Assembly (NCBI GenBank): GCA_964353465.1 | Contig: CAYGWQ010000003.1 | Span: forward strand, 1 to 54,731 | DNA length: 54,731 nucleotides | Direction of reading: 5' to 3' | Source of the DNA: an uncultured Acidobacteriota bacterium | Lineage (GTDB): Bacteria; Acidobacteriota; UBA6911 | Part shown: positions 5,565 to 54,731 of the stretch, piece by piece | How the letters are laid out: each line of letters opens with the position of its first letter | How positions within the stretch are numbered: position 1 is the first letter of the stretch | Position numbers and translations under genes: made by a program | Notes under the pieces: model-generated | Databases searched by the model: none | The model's input: only the letters and a program-made list of their open reading frames with translations | What the model was told of the DNA's origin: nothing

Positions 5565-5605
5565 AGATATTTCCAATCGCTGATTCGCTGCGAAGCGTCG
5601 CAGAC

Positions 5606-5631
5606 CACGAAATACACGAAATATACGAAAT
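5606..5631. repeat. 9-bp tandem repeat R1 (CACGAAATA x3, imperfect)
   Basis: cacgaaata-cacgaaata-tacgaaat. It lies 10 nt after the GH28 stop (5642) and 41 nt before the downstream start (5564). It is inverted relative to R2 and R3. Confidence 0.85.
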
Positions 5632-5641
5632 CCTTTGTCGG

Positions 5642-7260: not shown

Positions 7261-7288
7261 ATATTTCGTGCATTTCGTGTATTTCGTA
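7261..7288. repeat. 9-bp tandem repeat R2 (TATTTCGTG x3, imperfect)
   Basis: atatttcgtg-catttcgtg-tatttcgta. It lies 1 nt from the GH2 stop (7290) and 35 nt upstream of the GH28 start (7225). Confidence 0.85.
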
Positions 7289-10548: not shown

Positions 10549-10575
10549 ACTTTCGTGTATTTCGTGTATTTTGTG
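10549..10575. repeat. 9-bp tandem repeat R3 (TATTTCGTG x3, imperfect)
   Basis: actttcgtg-tatttcgtg-tattttgtg. It lies 3 nt from the stop of the upstream gene (10579) and 40 nt upstream of the GH2 start (10508). Confidence 0.85.
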
Positions 10576-10578
10576 GTT

Positions 10579-15860: not shown

Positions 15861-16031
15861 TCGCACACCAATGGTGAGAAATGCTCTGTATTTATCGTCC
15901 TGTCGGCGATCCGGTCTGGTTGATATATTGCGAACATGTGGCCCCGGAAGTAAAGCCCGATTTTTCGTCCAGGGCCCGTATTGCAATATGAAACATGCCT
16001 TGATCTATGAAGTAGCGCAGCAGAAAAAACC

Positions 16032-16097
16032 GGAACCACGAAATACGCGAAATACACGAAATCACAGGGGCGATCTTTTCGTGTATTTCGTGGTTCC
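16032..16097. repeat. R4: inverted pair of the 9-bp repeat forming a long hairpin
   Basis: GGAACCACGAAATAC (16032-16046) is the perfect reverse complement of GTATTTCGTGGTTCC (16083-16097). The left arm carries one extra 9-bp unit (GCGAAATAC). It sits in the divergent region between starts 15860(-) and 16416(+). Confidence 0.85.
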
Positions 16098-23561: not shown

Positions 23562-23876
23562 CCGATTCGCCCTGAACCAATAGTAGATCTTGTAGTTTTG
23601 AATGATACACCCGTCGACCTGGTTCGAACGGGTATATAGCTATATAAACGTAAAATGCGGGCAATCGGCTGAGAAAAATCAAATGAGTTCCGTCCAAGGG
23701 AAATGACCGGAAGATCGGCGGGAGGCTCGCGGTTGTCAGCGGTGGCCAACGAGATCTCATCTAATCTCGACGTTGTGTGGATTATCAGCGAAATTGTATG
23801 TTAAGTTTAAGAGTAAGTCATTTTCGTGATTCGCAGCCGGCAGGCCCACACATCAGCCTCGCAAGGAGGTTATCCC

Positions 23877-25733
23877 ATGAATACCATACGGCCCCATGTT
23901 CGCGGCACCGCCCTGTTAGTCTTCATCATCACGCTTTGCTTCGCCATTCCGAAGGCAACGGCGGACATCCGGGAGGATTTCTCTTTTTGGATCACGCTCG
24001 AATCCGTTGAAAAGATAGGCGAGGGAACCAGTGCTTTGACGGGCAGGGTGGCCGGTCTGCCGGTAAGGATATTATTGAACAATGCAACGACGGTTCATGA
24101 TGCGGCGGGACAGCCTGTCGATCCCTATGCGATCGGAGTCGGCGCCATCGTCCTTGTCAGGGCGGACTGGGGCAGGGAGGGCCTCGTCGCCAGGGCAATC
24201 TCCGTCAGCAATGAGGACGAGATGGTGATGACCGGTGTTCTGGAGTTCGCCTCTGCGGACCGGATCCGCGTGTCGAATACCGATCTGCGGCGCAGCGAAC
24301 TTACTTCGCTGGATCCCTCGGCCAGTCCCGGGCAACTTGTCGTAGCCCACATCCGCTTTGATCCTGATGGAGGAATGACGGCGATCAGCTTACAGGCGCA
24401 ACCCAGCCTGCGGCTATACGGCAGAATCACCAGAGTCCAGAAGACCGGGGCATCTGAGGGTATCGTGCAGGTCGCATCGAAGAGTGTCAGGGTTACACAA
24501 TCTTCGGCTTTGCTGGCAGCAGGGGACGTGAAGCTGTCTTTCGACGATCTCAAGGAGGGGCAGTATGTGGACTTGTCGGGAGAGATCAACAACGGCCTGG
24601 TGACCGCCCGGAAAATCCTGGTCTCGAATCCTCAGGAAGTGATCATCTTCGGCAAAATCACTGCATTTAACTCAAGATCCGTCTCCGTTAAGGGCGAAGA
24701 GGGGGTTTGCATTGTCAGGATGGATCCGCACACTGAAGTTCTCGGCACCCTTGCCTTGAATGCCCCGGTCGGCATAAGGACCGTGTTGCAGGGCGACAGT
24801 TCCCTGCTGGCTGCCAGAATCATGGTGTCCGAACGAGGTGCCGGCATTAGCAGCGTTCGTGGAGTCATTGCCAGCCTCGGCAATGGCTTCTTCATGGTGG
24901 GTGCCGTCAAAGTATCGGTCAATGCCCAGACCGTCATCATCTCCAAGGAAGGGACGCTGAGCTTCGCCGAACTGAAGGTCGGCGATCAGGTAGCCGCAGT
25001 CGGCAGCAAACAGAGCGATGGTTCTTTGCTCGCAGCCAAAGTCGAGGTGTCCAGGCCCCAGCCGGTCTTCAGCAACGTTCAGGGCACGATCACCAGCCTG
25101 GGCAACTCCTTCTTCATGGTGGGCGCCGTTAAGGTGTCGGTCGGCACACAGACCGTCATTGTTTCCAAGGGCAGAACTTTGAGCTTCTCCGACTTGAAGG
25201 CAGGCGATCAGGTATATGCCGCCGGCATCAAACAGGCGGACGGTTCGCTGCTCGCCGCCAAGATCGAGGTGTTCACGCCGGCGCCGGTTGTCAGCACTGT
25301 TCGGGGAGTGATTGTCAGCCTCGACAATGGCTTCTTCATGGTTGGGGCCGTCAAAGTGTCGATCAATGCACAGACCGTCATTGTATCCAAAGGCAAGACC
25401 TTGAGCTTCGCCGATCTGAAAGTCGGCGACCAGGTTGCTGCTGTCGGAAGCAAGCAGCCCGACGGTTCTCTCGTGGCGACCAAGATCGAAGTGGCTGTGC
25501 CTCAGCCGGCCGTCAGTACCATTCAGGGCACGATCACCGGCCTCGGCAACTCATTCTTTATAGTGGGCAGCCTACAGGTCAACGTCAGCGCGCAGACCGT
25601 CATCGTGTCCAAAGGGAAGGCACTGAGCTTCGCTGACCTGAAGATTGGAGATCAGATCTTTGCTGCGGGCAATAGGCAGGCTGATGGCTCTCTCCTGGCG
25701 CTCAAAATTGAAGTGGCCACGCCCAAGCGCTGA
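23877..25733 (+). CDS. secreted protein built of DUF5666-like repeats
   Basis: Inside ORF 23826..25733. ATG 23877 is preceded by AGGAGG (23863-23868). The signal is MNTIRPHVRGTALLVFIITLCFAIPKATA. Modules of the form G-x-I/V-x-x-L...V-x-V-x-x-x-T-x-I...L-x-x-G-D-x-V...G-S-L-x-A-x-K-I/V-E-V recur. Confidence 0.8.
   Translation: MNTIRPHVRGTALLVFIITLCFAIPKATADIREDFSFWITLESVEKIGEGTSALTGRVAGLPVRILLNNATTVHDAAGQPVDPYAIGVGAIVLVRADWGREGLVARAISVSNEDEMVMTGVLEFASADRIRVSNTDLRRSELTSLDPSASPGQLVVAHIRFDPDGGMTAISLQAQPSLRLYGRITRVQKTGASEGIVQVASKSVRVTQSSALLAAGDVKLSFDDLKEGQYVDLSGEINNGLVTARKILVSNPQEVIIFGKITAFNSRSVSVKGEEGVCIVRMDPHTEVLGTLALNAPVGIRTVLQGDSSLLAARIMVSERGAGISSVRGVIASLGNGFFMVGAVKVSVNAQTVIISKEGTLSFAELKVGDQVAAVGSKQSDGSLLAAKVEVSRPQPVFSNVQGTITSLGNSFFMVGAVKVSVGTQTVIVSKGRTLSFSDLKAGDQVYAAGIKQADGSLLAAKIEVFTPAPVVSTVRGVIVSLDNGFFMVGAVKVSINAQTVIVSKGKTLSFADLKVGDQVAAVGSKQPDGSLVATKIEVAVPQPAVSTIQGTITGLGNSFFIVGSLQVNVSAQTVIVSKGKALSFADLKIGDQIFAAGNRQADGSLLALKIEVATPKR
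24855..25730 (+). repeat. four in-frame 222-bp tandem repeats (74 aa each, last one shorter) with A-B-A-B pattern, inside CDS 23877..25733
   Basis: Units start at 24855, 25077, 25299 and 25521, spaced exactly 222 bp. Units 1 and 3 begin VRGVI.SL.NGFFMVGAVKVS.NAQTVI. Units 2 and 4 begin (V/I)QGTIT.LGNSFF.VG. Confidence 0.9.
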
Positions 25734-25749: not shown

Positions 25750-26508
25750 TTATTTTCTGTCGTGAAATCCGCTCAGCCCTTCGTGCAAGCCCTGCAGGGG
25801 CGGGAAGAGAATAGGCCCCGGCGCGGCTTTCGGCTTGAACCGGAAATCGATGTCGTCATCCCCGCAATAGCCAACTCCCGGGAAATCGAAGTCCGGACCG
25901 GCAGCCAGGACGGCTTGCTTGCCATCGGCGCTCAATACTCCAACCGTTGCCTTGACGGCGGATGCCTTGCGCCCGGAGGTGAAGATGACTTCGAATTCGC
26001 CGCTTTCGTAAAGCGCGAGGGCAAAATTAAAACCGGCATTGGCAAAAGTGTCGGGAGCCGGCACGACACTCATCCAGTAGATAAGATGAATTCGGTTCGG
26101 CGCCATTCCCATGGTCGCCGTCCAGACGGTGTTGGCCCATTGGGCGTGCCCTGCCTCCATTCGCAGGTCGGTCCAGAACGCGAAGATGCTGTTGCACGGC
26201 GCCGCGGCGGCCGGCAGAGTGGTGTTGGCGGCGACGCTCGTGCGCGCTTCGCGATCGAAAGTGATATAGCCGTTGTCGCTGATGAAATATCCGCTCACGT
26301 CCTTCCCGAAAAACTTCCACGGAAACGGCAGCGCCTGCCACGCGGACAGCTCGTTGTCCTTGGGAGGGCTGAACGCCTGCTGAGCGCTCTGACGGAATGA
26401 GAACAGGAAATCGTGGTCACCAACGGATCGTGCAAATTCGTAAGTCTGGCCATAAAGCCCGGCGGCGCTTAACACGATAAGGATTCCCGCACAAGCGATC
26501 TTTTTCAT
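25750..26508 (-). CDS. secreted hypothetical protein (beta-sandwich-like; LPFPWKFFG...SDNGYITF motif)
   Basis: Inside ORF 25750..26682. ATG 26508 is preceded by AAGGAG. The signal is MKKIACAGILIVLSAAGLYGQ. The start lies 20 nt after the stop of the upstream antiporter gene. The last ~25 codons are encoded by repeat copy D. Confidence 0.6.
   Translation of the reverse strand: MKKIACAGILIVLSAAGLYGQTYEFARSVGDHDFLFSFRQSAQQAFSPPKDNELSAWQALPFPWKFFGKDVSGYFISDNGYITFDREARTSVAANTTLPAAAAPCNSIFAFWTDLRMEAGHAQWANTVWTATMGMAPNRIHLIYWMSVVPAPDTFANAGFNFALALYESGEFEVIFTSGRKASAVKATVGVLSADGKQAVLAAGPDFDFPGVGYCGDDDIDFRFKPKAAPGPILFPPLQGLHEGLSGFHDRK
25753..25827. repeat. truncated copy (D) of the structured palindromic element: end motif plus first hairpin unit
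   Basis: TTTTCTGTCGTGAAATCC (25753-25770) matches the GGTTTCTGTCGCGAAAC end motif. Exactly 19 nt later, the same spacing as in copies B and C, comes GCCCTGCAGGGGCGGGAAGAGAATAGGCCCCGG. Similarity then ends. Confidence 0.6.
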
Positions 26509-26527
26509 TCCTGCTCCTTTCTTCAGC

Positions 26528-27679
26528 CTACGTCCAATAGAAAACGGGGACACAGCAGTCCGGCGCCAGGTTCGCCCAGCGCAATGCGGTCTCGGGAAGG
26601 AAATAGAATACGATGCAAAGCATGATGTAGACAGCCAAAAGCTGTACGCCCTCCATCCAATTGGACTCCCCATCACGCGCAATCTCGTTGGTAATGATCA
26701 CTGCCAGGAAGATGGCAAGCACTTCCGCCGGAGTGAAAACCAGGTTCATCGGTTCCGGCCCCACAAAAAGACTGGCCACAACAAGAACAGGGGCCACGAA
26801 AAGAGCGATCTGGATGCTGCTGCCGATGGCGACACCCAGACTGAGGTCCATACGGTCCTTTGCGGCCAGGACCACCGCCGTGCTGTGTTCGGCGGCGTTA
26901 CCGATGATCGCCACGATCACCAGGCCGACAAAAAGGCTGTTCAGACCGAAGGCATGCGCGGCCATTTCCACCGAGCCGACGAGGATTTCACTCATCCAGG
27001 CGATCAGCGCAGTGACCAGACCCAGCAAGAGCAGGCTCTTGCGGAGAGGCCATGCCGAATGCTTCTCATCCGCCACGGTGGCGCCCTCGCCCCGGTGGCC
27101 GGCAAAGAAGTGCTTATGGGTGCGCAGGCCGAAAATGAGCGACAGCCCGTACGTAATCAGCAGCACAACCGCAAACTCCAGGCTCAGATCCGCCTCGGCT
27201 ACCCGCCCTTGCGGTCCGGCGAGCCAGTGAAATGCCGCCGGCAGGATCAACCCGATGGTGGCCAGCGTCATCATGGTTGCCTGGATCCGGGCGCCGCCGG
27301 CATGGAAAGCCTGCGTCTTGTGCTTGAAGCCGCCGGCCAGAAAGGCGGCTCCCATAACCAGCAGAATGTTGCCGATAATGGACCCGGTCAGCGAAGCCTT
27401 GACGACATCGTAGAGCCCGGCGCGCAAGGCGACAAGAGCAATGATCAGCTCCGCTGCGTTGCCGAAAGTGGCGTTGAGGAGCCCGCCGACGCCTTCACCG
27501 GCGCGCGCCGCCAGGTGTTCCGTGGCTTTTCCCATCCAGCCGGCGAGAGGGATGATGGCGAGACAAGCTGCAAGAAAAATAGTCCCATGCCAATCGCGGC
27601 CGATGAATTCCAGCGCCACGGTGATGGGGAGGAAAACCAGCAACCAGTCGAGTCTGGGCTTGAGCCACGAGCGCTTCAT
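26528..27679 (-). CDS. cax: Ca2+/H+ antiporter (CaCA family, ChaA/Cax type)
   Basis: Polytopic membrane protein with the two alpha-repeat signatures GNAAELIIALVAL and GNAAEHSTAVVLA that are typical of calcium/proton exchangers. Confidence 0.9.
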   Translation of the reverse strand: MKRSWLKPRLDWLLVFLPITVALEFIGRDWHGTIFLAACLAIIPLAGWMGKATEHLAARAGEGVGGLLNATFGNAAELIIALVALRAGLYDVVKASLTGSIIGNILLVMGAAFLAGGFKHKTQAFHAGGARIQATMMTLATIGLILPAAFHWLAGPQGRVAEADLSLEFAVVLLITYGLSLIFGLRTHKHFFAGHRGEGATVADEKHSAWPLRKSLLLLGLVTALIAWMSEILVGSVEMAAHAFGLNSLFVGLVIVAIIGNAAEHSTAVVLAAKDRMDLSLGVAIGSSIQIALFVAPVLVVASLFVGPEPMNLVFTPAEVLAIFLAVIITNEIARDGESNWMEGVQLLAVYIMLCIVFYFLPETALRWANLAPDCCVPVFYWT

Positions 27680-29036: not shown

Positions 29037-29165
29037 GACATCCCTTTCCCGGCCGAATCTGGTTCGAGCCGCTGATGGCGCCCCTATTGTAGCGTTTCCC
29101 GATACACGATCTGAATCGAATTCTGTTTTTTTGGAACTGAAGATAAAACTCAGCTTGCTCAGCTC

Positions 29166-29434
29166 GTATCTGTTGCGAGATGCCTTCCGAGCCCTCGCGG
29201 CAAAGCCCTGGAGGGGCGGAAAGATAGTAGCCGGGGGCGCAAGCCCCCGGATAGGATGTTGCATTGAAGGAGCCCTGGTAGGGGCGAAAGAGCATTGTAT
29301 GTACCCTCGTTCTCTCGCCCCTCCAGGGCTCCGAGATGCTCTCCCATCCGACCCCGGGCTTGCGCCCGGGGCGACTCTCTGGCCGCCCCTGCGGGGCTGG
29401 GCTGGAGGGCGGAGCGAATTTCACGATTGAGTCC
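29166..29434. repeat. structured palindromic MITE-like element, copy A (inverted relative to B and C)
   Basis: It contains GCCCTGGAGGGGCGGAAAGATAGTAGCCGGGGGCGCAAGCCCCCGGATAGGAT, a central palindrome, and then the inverted second arm ...CCCCGGGCTTGCGCCCGGGG...GCCCCTGCGGGGC. The end motif GTATCTGTTGCGAGATGCC lies at 29166. The element sits in the divergent region between starts 29036(-) and 29833(+). Confidence 0.8.
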
Positions 29435-29832
29435 AGCTCGCCGACCTTAGGGGCGAAGGGCAAAGTGGTCAAGGGACATGGGAAAACCGGGGACCAAAAT
29501 CAGGGCTGATCGCAGATCTTGCCCTTGAAACTTCGAATGAGGGCATCCAGCAGCCCTTCTACTGTGAAGTACTCTGTTGCAAGGAGGTCCTTGAGCCATG
29601 ATCCTAATGTCCTTTGGCTCCTTGAACCGACTCGAACAAACGCAGCCCGATCCTTATTATTTTCAATCAGTTGTGTAATTTCCGAGACGTGCTATACTGG
29701 CCCGGTTCCCCGGTCCCGCATGACCGGGAATGATAGAGCAGCCAATTCATGTTATGGAATACCGGACAGGAACGGCACATACCGTGAGAGTCGTGACCCG
29801 CGAGTCTCGCATCATGCAGGGAACTGCACCTT

Positions 29833-45265: not shown

Positions 45266-45286
45266 AAGCTCGATCTCCATATAACT

Positions 45287-45587
45287 GGTTTCTGTCTCGA
45301 AACCGGCTCCGCTCCTAGCCCTGCCCCGCAGGGGCGGAAAGAGAATAGCCCCGGGCGCAAGCCCGGGGTGGGATCCGTGAGCAGCACGAAGCCCTGAAAG
45401 GGCGACAGAAAGAGGTTGCAGCCAAAGATCTTTCGCCCTTACCAGGGCTCATTCAATGCGACATCCTATCCGGGGGCTTGCGCCCCCGGCTACCATCTTT
45501 CCGCCCCTCCAGGGCGCGGCCTGCACATTCTGCTGCCTCCGGGGCTCAGCCGGCACATTCTGCGGCCTGGTTTCGCGACAGATACTA
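45287..45587. repeat. structured palindromic MITE-like element, copy B
   Basis: Parts in order: left end GGTTTCTGTCTCGAAACC; arm alpha GCCCCGCAGGGGCGGAAAGAGAATAGCCCCGGGCGCAAGCCCGGGGTGGGAT; central palindrome AGCCCTGAAAGGGCGA...TTTCGCCCTTACCAGGGCT; inverted arm beta ATCCTATCCGGGGGCTTGCGCCCCCGGCTACCATCTTTCCGCCCCTCCAGGGC; an internal ~30-bp duplication (GCACATTCTGC twice); right end GGTTTCGCGACAGATAC. It lies between the ygfK stop and the next start. Confidence 0.85.
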
Positions 45588-45621
45588 ACTGGTTTCCACC
45601 CATCCCTCGGCCGCCTGGATG

Positions 45622-49024: not shown

Positions 49025-49294
49025 GGTTTCTGTCGCGAAACTCGCTCGGCCAGTAAGCAAGCCCCGGAGGGGCAGGAAGAGAATAGCCCCGGGCGCAAGC
49101 CCGGGGTTGGATCGGAAAGCCACGCAGAGCCCCGGAGGGGCGACAGAAAAATGTCGCGCACAAATGTCTTTCGCCCCTGCCGGGGCTCCATAAATGCAAT
49201 ATCCTATCCGGGGGCTCGCGCCCCCGGCTACTATCTTTCTGCCCCTCCGGGGCGCGGCTAGCGCATTCTGCGGCCGAGTTTTGCAACAGTTAAC
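49025..49294. repeat. structured palindromic MITE-like element, copy C
   Basis: Same architecture and orientation as copy B. The left end is GGTTTCTGTCGCGAAACT, and hp1 GCCCCGGAGGGGC follows 19 nt later. It carries the GCAA-loop hairpin, a central palindrome, inverted arm beta (loop TCGC) and a degenerate right end GAGTTTTGCAACAGTTAAC. It lies between the Mo-subunit stop and the ygfK start. Confidence 0.85.
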
Positions 49295-49350
49295 TGGCCA
49301 ATCTGTGCCATTCGGACACAAACTGCAATTCTTTGGATTGGCCGGTTAAC
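49289..49350. repeat. 15-bp inverted repeat (GTTAACTGGCCAATC / GATTGGCCGGTTAAC, 1 mismatch) with 32-nt spacer
   Basis: The arms are at 49289-49303 and 49336-49350. It sits immediately right of element copy C and is followed by GACAGAAAC (reverse complement of GTTTCTGTC, the element end-motif core) at 49352-49360. Confidence 0.6.
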
Positions 49351-49430
49351 TGACAGAAACTAGATTGTGTCGCGAAGCGCCATTCGGGCCCCCGCGGCAA
49401 CGCCCCGGATCAAGTTCGAATTTCGAATTT

Positions 49431-54616: not shown

Positions 54617-54671
54617 TGGGCCCGTTTCCTTTGCTCGCGAATCAATCCAATGCATGCAGCGCTACTAGTGT

Positions 54672-54689
54672 AGTTCCTGTCGCGAAACT
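54672..54689. promoter_or_regulatory. solo copy of the element end motif (AGTTCCTGTCGCGAAACT), 56-73 nt upstream of the PLP-enzyme start; operator or start of another element copy truncated by the window edge
   Basis: It matches GGTTTCTGTCGCGAAACT (copy C left end) at 15 of 18 positions. No hairpin unit follows in the 42 nt remaining before the window end. Confidence 0.4.
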
Positions 54690-54731
54690 CCCTTTTCGGA
54701 CCGAATCTTCCGCCAACCAGACCAATCATGT

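Follow-up and report, generated by a model that had tools for sequence, protein, structure and literature searches.

Palindromic intergenic repeats of an Acidobacteriota contig as probable DDE-mobilised miniature elements with an Acido-Lenti-1 hairpin core

The contig CAYGWQ010000003.1 of an uncultured Acidobacteriota bacterium (GTDB lineage UBA6911; GenBank assembly GCA_964353465.1) carries a family of short palindromic repeats, which are the subject of this work. The window analysed here is the entire contig of 54,731 bp. It holds three full copies, named A, B and C, together with a truncated copy, a piece left from the end of an older copy and one more terminus, at position 54673 (Table 1). 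The full copies measure 269-335 bp and are non-coding; the open reading frames (ORFs) that cross them merely translate the repeat. All copies in the window are intergenic and sit between real genes. B and C are located between co-directional genes of the minus strand, which encode subunits of a xanthine dehydrogenase (XDH), a YgfK-like protein and an amidohydrolase. Repeat mapping aligns B with C at 80% identity across 254 nt, and the inverted copy A with B at 87% identity across 199 nt.

A first-pass annotation made from the letters of this contig alone had described the intergenic position and the absence of a plausible internal ORF correctly. It had also placed all three copies within 1-2 nt at their definable ends, except that it let C stop at 49294; the right end of C lies at about 49360, because a palindrome of ~61 nt interrupts the right terminus. 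Every feature of its seven-part architecture can be read in the sequence, including the GGTTTC-N6-GAAAC end motif, the GCCCC-NNN-GGGGC hairpin, GGAAAGAGAATA, the 8-bp hairpin capped by GCAA, the central palindrome and the mirrored arm. The truncated copy was recovered as described. The so-called solo end is real and can be refined to a right-end fragment of an older copy, which abuts C via a shared TA at 49361-62 and also occurs in an orthologous locus with 90% identity (L151; loci used for comparison carry L numbers). The inventory of pieces had missed the terminus close to the contig end, TA followed by GTTCCTGTCGCGAAAC. B is longer than the norm of ~267 bp because of an internal duplication of ~30 nt near its right end (about 45517-45568).

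In the alignment of the window copies with relatives, the elements end flush as GTTTCTGTCGCGAAA...TTTCGCGACAGAAAC. Their terminal inverted repeats (TIRs) comprise 15 bp with the consensus GTTTCTGTCGCGAAA, or 15-16 bp in the form GTTTCTGTCGCGAAA[C/T]. The conservation of each terminal position is at least 0.88 in the composite elements with the hairpin core, in MITEs (miniature inverted-repeat transposable elements) with other cargo and in copies of an insertion sequence (IS), all of which are described below. Perfect target-site duplications (TSDs) of 6 bp flank B (TAACTG/TAACTG) and A (CAGCTC/CAGCTC). The TAACTGG-like strings that had been noticed near both ends in the first reading thereby find their explanation as the TSD of B.

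Table 1. Positions of the repeat elements and their parts in the window (MITE, miniature inverted-repeat transposable element; TIR, terminal inverted repeat)
Feature	Position	Strand	Remarks
Truncated copy	25753-25827	+	left TIR TTTTCTGTCGTGAAA (TA before), hairpin hp1, linker, half of hairpin hp2
Copy A, full MITE	29166-29434	-	269 bp; inverted; degenerate TIRs (3 and about 5 mismatches)
A target-site duplication CAGCTC	29160-29165; second copy 29435-29440	.	read from sequence
A Acido-Lenti-1 module	29204-29250	-	39.9 bits
A Acido-Lenti-1 module	29352-29398	+	27.2 bits; degenerate
Copy B, full MITE	45288-45585	+	298 bp
B left target-site duplication TAACTG	45282-45287	.	
B right target-site duplication TAACTG	45586-45591	.	
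B left TIR GTTTCTGTCTCGAAA	45288-45302	+	14/15 to consensus
B right TIR TTTCGCGACAGATAC	45571-45585	-	as read on + strand; 14/15
B left-arm Acido-Lenti-1 module	45322-45368	-	37.0 bits
B right-arm Acido-Lenti-1 module	45470-45516	+	34.3 bits (under gathering score 37)
Copy C, full MITE	49026-49360	+	right TIR split by foreign palindrome of ~61 nt
C left TIR	49026-49040		15/15 to consensus
C right TIR remnants	49279-49289 and 49353-49360		
C left-arm Acido-Lenti-1 module	49060-49106	-	39.6 bits
C right-arm Acido-Lenti-1 module	49208-49254	+	36.4 bits
Unrelated small palindromic insert within C right terminus	49290-49350	.	TTAACTGGCCAATC...GATTGGCCGGTTAAC
End fragment of older copy	49363-49408	+	GATTGTGTCGCGAAG and about 30 nt of subterminal sequence
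TA and terminus GTTCCTGTCGCGAAAC	54671-54731	+	TA and terminus at 54671-54688, then non-composite sequence off the contig end

Across 41 paired elements, the two flanking hexamers are identical in 14 cases and differ by at most one mismatch in 23. Where the hexamer is not self-reverse-complementary, six pairs are identical in direct orientation versus none in inverted orientation. The flanks are therefore a duplicated target rather than a longer TIR, and the assignment of the hexamer to the TIR was rejected. For loci that had not been chosen by their flanks, the bases from position -6 through -1 are T (18/21), A (14/21), R (19/21), Y (20/21), T (19/21) and A (18/21). The longer flanks contain direct repeats of 6-7 bp with a narrow vocabulary (TAGCTA, TAGTTA, TAACTA, TAATTA, TAGTCTA and TAGACTA). 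The presence of TA at nearly all ends suggested a TA-only duplication, as in IS630/Tc1-like elements. This was rejected in favour of a TSD of 6-7 bp, because B and A possess perfect repeats of a non-TA hexamer and because direct repeats of non-palindromic hexamers or heptamers occur in L046, L116, L117, L134, L014, L084, L141 and L142.

Neighbouring elements often abut via one hexamer, for example as ...GAAAC-TAACTA-GTTTC... in L014, L058, L090 and L141, which fits the re-use of a duplicated target beside an existing end. In six IS copies (L085, L058, L107, L102, L131 and L077) one flank is TAGCTA and the opposite flank TAGACTA or TAGTCTA. This recurrent difference of 1 nt in flank length is not explained by simple decay of the TSD; it may reflect staggered cuts of 6 versus 7 bp, or insertion beside earlier footprints.

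The termini are shared with elements that encode a transposase. A metagenome scan with TAGTTYCTGTCGCGAAA returned 120 contigs, in which paired inverted termini form two size classes: 26 pairs span 117-311 bp, and 16 pairs span 1.83-2.49 kb with a mode at about 2.09 kb. The long units represent an IS of ~2.1 kb with two collinear ORFs, a transposase of 472-473 amino acids and, upstream of it, a DUF6788-like ORF of 121-127 amino acids. The transposase scores 427.1 bits with the NCBIfam model NF033593 "ISNCY family transposase" (cutoff 325). In Pfam it matches DUF772 and DDE_Tnp_1, the latter being borderline with 21.8-23.5 bits versus 23, and the IS5 and IS1182 models reveal weaker similarity under their own cutoffs. 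Both ends carry the 17-nt pattern in 12 of the 16 IS-size pairs, the scan having required one end only. The first-pass annotation had proposed a search for a transposase with matching IS ends.

The short pairs are heterogeneous, as 14 of the 26 contain the hairpin module and 12 have unrelated interiors. Composites, elements with other cargo and the IS share the 15-nt consensus and then diverge past about position 16-18; an Rfam search of the IS-bearing loci gave no hit. One terminus with several cargoes and a shared IS has the look of a MITE superfamily that would be served by one transposase, in which the window elements are the subfamily carrying the Acido-Lenti-1 core as cargo. One locus (L121, 527-670) holds a "half" element of 144 bp with a single central hairpin hp2 common to both arms.

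Insertion polymorphism is visible among orthologous loci. The gene for the YgfK-like protein, situated between B and C, is matched by syntenic orthologues of 90, 84, 80 and 77% identity, and the closest named orthologue of the protein belongs to an Acidobacteriota metagenome-assembled genome (MAG). In L152 (84%) the spacer between the YgfK and amidohydrolase genes comprises 51 nt versus 341 in the window, and the spacer between the XDH and YgfK genes 82 nt versus 494; neither contains element material. The window without B and without one TAACTG aligns to L152 with a gap-free junction. Site C is empty also in L154 (77%), as the XDH and YgfK genes overlap there. L150 (90%) displays a different cargo with the same terminus at exactly the point of B, L153 (80%) a third cargo elsewhere in the spacer that holds B, and L151 (90%) a double-module composite at site C in opposite orientation and with degenerate ends. 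Four relatives in four states are strong evidence for recurrent insertion. Related copies of full length are present in many other genomes and metagenomes. The elements with other cargo lie at about 4395-4600 of L150 and about 7380-7560 of L153. A junction GGAAAC/TAGTCA/GTTTCTGTCGCGAAAC occurs in the relative with an insertion at the same position; its outer GGAAAC looks like the end of an element, a sign that a hotspot may have received insertions in series. Rapid turnover thus takes place within a conserved operon, the xanthine-dehydrogenase / ygfK / amidohydrolase cluster, which offers a natural system for studying the effect of structured insertions on operon expression.

Between the termini lies a quasi-palindromic core of ~200 nt, composed of two outward-facing double-hairpin modules of the Acido-Lenti-1 type (Rfam RF01687) and a central hairpin pair. 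The Rfam comparison, which the first-pass annotation had pointed to with "Acido-type motifs", detects RF01687 in all three copies and twice in each, the left arm always on the minus and the right arm on the plus strand, about 101 nt apart. Three of the six arms reach the gathering score of 37, and relatives score up to 56.5 bits. Matches to miRNA and snoRNA families from a permissive Rfam search were dismissed as noise far under their gathering scores. Each arm of ~46 nt resembles the published motif, which is known from the same phylum, in its 8-bp tetraloop hairpin (hp2), GGCUA-type linker and 5-bp hairpin (hp1). B folds far more stably than shuffled sequences, with -87.5 kcal/mol as single-stranded DNA (z = -7.5) and with -169.2 kcal/mol as RNA (z = -7.3). 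When the arm pattern was scanned against a genome collection, relatives came from Acidobacteriota, Planctomycetota, Armatimonadota and a single Clostridia bin, several of them being full-length composites of 267-270 bp.

A profile search collected 70 module instances at 39 loci. All 22 close inverted pairs face outward, with hp2 inside and hp1 outside, versus none in the reverse arrangement, and the modal gap is 99-104 nt. The hp2 stems, of which 18 are distinct, comprise 510 Watson-Crick, 5 G·T, 4 A·C and 9 other pairs; 27 distinct hp1 stems (n = 315 pairs) comprise 300, 5, 6 and 4, respectively. A gapless alignment of 60 distinct modules gives 98.1% pairing for hp2, with double-sided changes at 5 of its 8 pairs. 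The covariation score of hp2 amounts to 0.296, compared with 0.074 in shuffled alignments (0/500 reach the observed value) and at most 0.087 with partners slid, for modules that had been gathered under a lenient filter for pairing. The left hp2 of the window copies and their close relatives reads CCCCGGGC/GCCCGGGG and the right hp2 CCGGGGGC/GCCCCCGG. Local hairpins are thus kept where arm-to-arm pairing is not.

The loops raise the question of the relevant strand. On the strand opposite the Rfam model, hp2 bears GNRA tetraloops (GCAA, GCGA, GTGA, GTAA, GAAA) and hp1 C-GNA-G triloops. Many Lentisphaera rows of the published seed have an A·C pair in hp2 (CCUAGCUC...GAGCCAGG), which corresponds to G·U on the other strand. 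Should the motif ever be an RNA, the Rfam model may lie on the wrong strand. The equal rarity of G·T and A·C pairs and the opposite-strand GNRA and GNA loops speak against an RNA that is specific to the strand of the Rfam model; we read them as selection for hairpin formation on both strands, at the level of DNA or of RNA made from either direction, and not to a small RNA (sRNA) gene. In some loci the hp2 tetraloop is replaced by GAGCGAAGCGA or GAGCGCAGCGA (L014 4667-4936 and 4943-5210, L121 527-670, L060 4675-4936, L042 853-1114), and these long-loop variants contain the motif GCGAAGC. GCGAAGC forms a very stable DNA mini-hairpin.

Acido-Lenti-1 was originally described from Acidobacteria and Lentisphaerae, sometimes near group II introns, and rated "probably RNA" from covariation (Weinberg et al., 2010; PMC2864571). 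Repetition exists within the published seed too, which has tandem arrays in Lentisphaera and one inverted pair with window-like spacing. The core also occurs without GTTTCTGTCGCGAAA, L001, L009, L021, L026 and L029 being core-only variants: Rfam-positive examples of 44-56 bits are found in Tepidisphaeraceae, another Planctomycetota MAG, Pyrinomonadaceae, Chloracidobacterium and other lineages. In these cores the palindrome stops at hp1 or runs into different inverted repeats, and in L012 inward-facing module pairs are part of another repeat. The module can thus be viewed as a building block used in several architectures, by analogy with repetitive extragenic palindromes (REPs). Core and terminus are separable.

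Altogether, it is likely that the window repeats are MITEs mobilised by a DDE transposase. They are short and non-coding, and we observe directly their defined termini, their duplications, ends in common with a transposase-encoding IS, insertion polymorphism and compensatory conservation of the hairpins. The elements would be cut and pasted in trans by a DDE transposase that recognises the 15-16-bp TIRs. The likely enzyme is the ISNCY-type (IS5-related, DUF772 and DDE_Tnp_1) transposase of the ~2.1-kb IS with the same terminus, which we infer to mobilise the window copies in particular. Integration would involve a staggered cut of 6 bp, sometimes 7 bp, at a preferred quasi-palindromic TARYTA or TAGWCTA site and the duplication of this target. 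Since the duplicated target adjoins an existing end, we propose that new insertions would often settle beside old ones and give rise to abutting copies and hotspots. The hairpins presumably act at the DNA level, or are tolerated as structured RNA in an operon transcript, and would not constitute an sRNA gene.

Several points weigh against this interpretation. C is without an intact TSD and the termini of A are degenerate. The metagenome loci were fetched by a terminus pattern, which imposes TA on one side. The IS and the composites share the terminus of ~16 bp only and no common subterminal sequence, so the MITE is not a simple deletion derivative of the IS, an origin that was rejected for this reason. 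The terminus-sharing IS is known from metagenome contigs and not from the genome to which the window belongs, and the sequence after the 54673 terminus bears no resemblance to the sampled IS ends. The terminus GTTTCTGTCGCGAAA is not in the flanks of any of the 89 published seed members of RF01687. As the core exists in Planctomycetota and other acidobacterial families without this terminus, the transposase cannot explain the spread of the whole module. Finally, no transposition event was observed.

The obvious rival explanation, which we regard as unlikely, treats the hairpin core as a REP/REPIN-like sequence moved as single-stranded DNA by an HUH tyrosine transposase (RAYT/TIRYT), with the DDE-type termini being secondary or irrelevant. 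It draws on the organisation of the modules, which form outward dimers, inward dimers (L012), tandem arrays (the Lentisphaera seed) and singletons, and head-to-head, tail-to-tail and clustered arrangements (HH/TT/cluster) are reported for REPs (PMC3733652). A GTAG or ATAG tag stands directly 5' of the paired hp2 on the GNRA-loop strand in most copies of the window subfamily. Acidobacteria also possess a distinct TIRYT clade flanked by "double palindromic" repeats with an analogous layout of a large and a small hairpin, and the core is present in several phyla without DDE termini. The tag, however, is not kept in the Lentisphaera or L012 variants, and the clean TIRs and TSDs of the window copies are not products of HUH transposition. 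A tblastn search of 752 kb, in which at least 70 modules lie, with E. coli RayT (a query that agrees with the alignment in PMC3733652) and four acidobacterial TIRYTs found nothing at E <= 0.1.

TIRYT loci of the K. versatilis ORF1552 type have their own repeat and no RF01687 match at E <= 1. Among the three TIRYTs of K. versatilis, only that of ORF1552 has a repeat that is a multi-copy family (Di Nocera et al., 2013; PMC3733652), and Acido-Lenti-1 is multi-copy in this genome; it would follow that none of the three is flanked by Acido-Lenti-1. Candidate partners failed as well. ORFs with HUH motifs near modules had no Pfam hit, the best tblastn match (E = 0.14, L017) belongs to an ORF with desaturase-like histidine boxes, and the sole widely spaced module pair that could enclose a gene (L006, 515-nt gap) contains no plausible ORF. 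The tyrosine-transposase explanation is thus unsupported by a search that covered E. coli RayT and the acidobacterial TIRYT and ORF1552-type clades. The first-pass annotation had named a mobile element and a REP-like or bacterial interspersed mosaic element (BIME)-like repeat side by side; TIRs, TSDs, IS termini and empty sites speak for the former in the shape of a MITE, and no RAYT/TIRYT partner was found for the latter in this search.

The Y1_Tnp genes of the ORF1552 type are flanked by an inverted repeat of two hairpins, GTATCAGG-GCACGGC-TTCC-GCCGTGC ... GGGC-TTTA-GCCC, at 2926-2998 and 3466-3537 of L155 and at 2930-2998 and 3463-3536 of L158. Its layout of a large and a small hairpin parallels the Acido-Lenti-1 module, but sequence and covariance model do not match. 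L155 has a second, partial copy at 635-1230.

A further alternative, which appears quite improbable, sees the composite mainly as a cis-acting RNA element selected by the host, either a bidirectional terminator or attenuator or a stabiliser of mRNA 3' ends as in REP or enterobacterial repetitive intergenic consensus (ERIC) sequences, that spread through host benefit and not by transposition. The downstream arm on each strand reads as an 8-bp GC hairpin with a pyrimidine/U-rich tail, CUAUUCUCUUUCC, after it, and in both B and C the scan marked hp2 with CTATTCTCTT on the transcribed strand as resembling a terminator, the U-tract being interrupted. Across phyla the hairpins are conserved, as is the unpaired linker, and every window copy is intergenic. 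Class C group II introns target terminator-like stem-loops. We speculate that the location of Lentisphaera copies near group II introns (PMC2864571) fits a hairpin of this kind. The count of terminator-like sites in the region (7) is nevertheless within the noise of shuffled sequences (4.0 +/- 2.8). In a relative only 51-82 nt separate the genes around B and C, so that an operon mRNA probably includes the elements; a strong terminator would be polar at such a place. Close relatives do without the element, which is therefore dispensable, and TIRs, TSDs and a matching IS account for its spread without host benefit. A role as terminator or stabiliser, which is speculative, could hold as a secondary property of the MITE rather than as a rival explanation.

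Finally, the modules could be genuine sRNA genes as catalogued in Rfam (Gene; sRNA) and the repeats multi-copy sRNA loci, for which the gathering-score matches in the window and scores of 44-56 bits in other loci, the strong compensatory change in hp2 and the published "probably RNA" rating can be cited, but this is most improbable given that the modules form inverted pairs inside TIR/TSD-bounded elements that are variably present among close relatives, occur in both orientations relative to flanking genes, have no promoter-like site within or beside B or C in our scan, exhibit no strand bias in their non-Watson-Crick pairs, expose their GNRA and GNA loops on the opposite strand and, in B and C, lie within a conserved co-directional gene cluster, where they would form part of an mRNA rather than separately transcribed genes.

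Returning to the probable DDE-mobilised MITE, its core invites a more tentative idea, which we hold to be possible though doubtful. The Acido-Lenti-1 double hairpin might be a structure-selected module, found across Acidobacteriota, Planctomycetota, Armatimonadota and Lentisphaerae, that has been recruited repeatedly behind different transposon termini and is neither an sRNA gene nor passive filler. The terminus would then be of ISNCY type here, and elsewhere consist of other inverted repeats or be missing. At the level of DNA, the hairpins might favour transposition or the extrusion of cruciforms; alternatively, they might provide their carriers with a terminator- or stabiliser-like RNA function; as a corollary, the Rfam model may sit on the wrong strand.

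The MITE reading has parallels in known systems. RUP of Streptococcus pneumoniae is a MITE with the partner IS630-Spn1, and Correia/NEMIS elements are found in Neisseria. Like the window elements, these are short, non-coding, quasi-palindromic, intergenic and multi-copy, with TIRs and short TA-containing duplications; they are often co-transcribed with their neighbours, and their termini are shared with an IS (RUP) or reminiscent of one. In contrast to RUP, the terminus and the TARYTA duplication of 6-7 bp match an ISNCY/IS5-like element and not IS630. The window elements differ from both families in having only about 16 bp in common with the IS and in a conserved, covarying double-hairpin interior that is also found apart from this terminus. 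Repeats of 6-7 bp are listed for the ISDol1 group of ISNCY. The ~2.1-kb partner resembles IS of the ISNCY family (NF033593 type; relatives of IS5/IS1182) in its transposase with DUF772 and DDE domain, its TIRs and its duplications of 6-7 bp, whereas the window elements are non-coding and the partner has the additional upstream DUF6788-like ORF.

As for REP, REPIN and BIME sequences with their RAYTs and the TIR repeats with their TIRYTs (Di Nocera et al., 2013; PMC3733652), the module is alike in being a GC-rich hairpin block that occurs as singletons, both kinds of dimer and clusters, and in the GTAG/ATAG tag adjoining hp2 in most copies of the window subfamily; acidobacterial TIRYT repeats are similar in their large-plus-small hairpin layout. 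It is unlike them in that no RAYT or TIRYT was found adjoining the modules and that the window copies have DDE-type TIRs and TSDs, and unlike a single REP palindrome in combining two hairpins with a conserved linker of 12-13 nt. The published description of Acido-Lenti-1 consists of two sentences on an sRNA class and contains no composite, termini, duplications or transposase. Here, by contrast, the module is the cargo of a TIR/TSD-bounded element, with its GNRA and GNA loops on the opposite strand.

The first-pass annotation had held that a match to an already described family would speak against its proposal. Such a match exists for the ~46-nt arm, which is RF01687, and leaves mobility unrefuted; the composite, its termini and its transposon nature are not part of the catalogued description. 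The literature on Acido-Lenti-1, ISDol1 and MITEs in Acidobacteria yielded no description of the window element. MITEs as a kind of element and the arm module as an Rfam family are already known. New relative to the searched literature are the composite with its exact termini and 6-7-bp TARYTA duplication, the ISNCY-type partner with a DUF6788-like ORF, the superfamily of many cargoes on one terminus, and the conclusion that Acido-Lenti-1 matches in Acidobacteriota mark transposon interiors.

These results correct a database annotation: at least in Acidobacteriota, the RF01687 "sRNA" is the interior of a transposable element, and matches to it have already been reported as non-coding RNA genes in genome papers. 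They also provide a testable transposon system, with exact ends, a TARYTA target and an IS partner, for abundant and little-studied soil phyla. The accessory DUF6788-like ORF of the IS is unstudied, and more than 12 different cargoes occur on one terminus. The pairing of the core, maintained across phyla and separable from the terminus, leads to the question of what selects it.

Some observations concern single pieces of the family. The ~61-nt palindrome enters the right terminus of C directly after ...GCAACAG, and a related palindrome occupies the same point of a right terminus in L015 (about 795-857), a locus of an unrelated Terriglobia MAG. The palindrome could be another tiny mobile element, with this terminus as its target, or mark a subfamily that spread after gaining the insert. 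A 310-amino-acid ORF without Pfam match (25750-26682, minus strand) runs through the truncated copy and ends beside it; if this is a real gene, its final ~25 codons are MITE-derived. The terminus GTTCCTGTCGCGAAAC lies 45 nt from the contig end, and the sequence downstream of it, ending in ...ATCATGT, is unlike the composite. The terminus belongs to the end of a further element from this terminus superfamily, possibly the IS itself, and the contig probably ends there as expected of an assembly break at a multi-copy element. An exact-match scan of the metagenome with the sequence beyond this terminus gave no match.

The window contains two other kinds of repeat. A gene of 635 codons at 23826-25733 includes four to five tandem repeats of 222 nt (74 codons) at 24849-25728 with 72-77% identity, and its product has four DUF5666 domains and a weak match to a Hint module. 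Short arrays of a 9-nt unit (ACGAAATAC / ACGAAATAT) are dispersed over four sites in both orientations (5595-5632, 7263-7287, 10551-10578 and 16026-16063) with up to 93% identity, and may represent a repeated operator or binding-site array.

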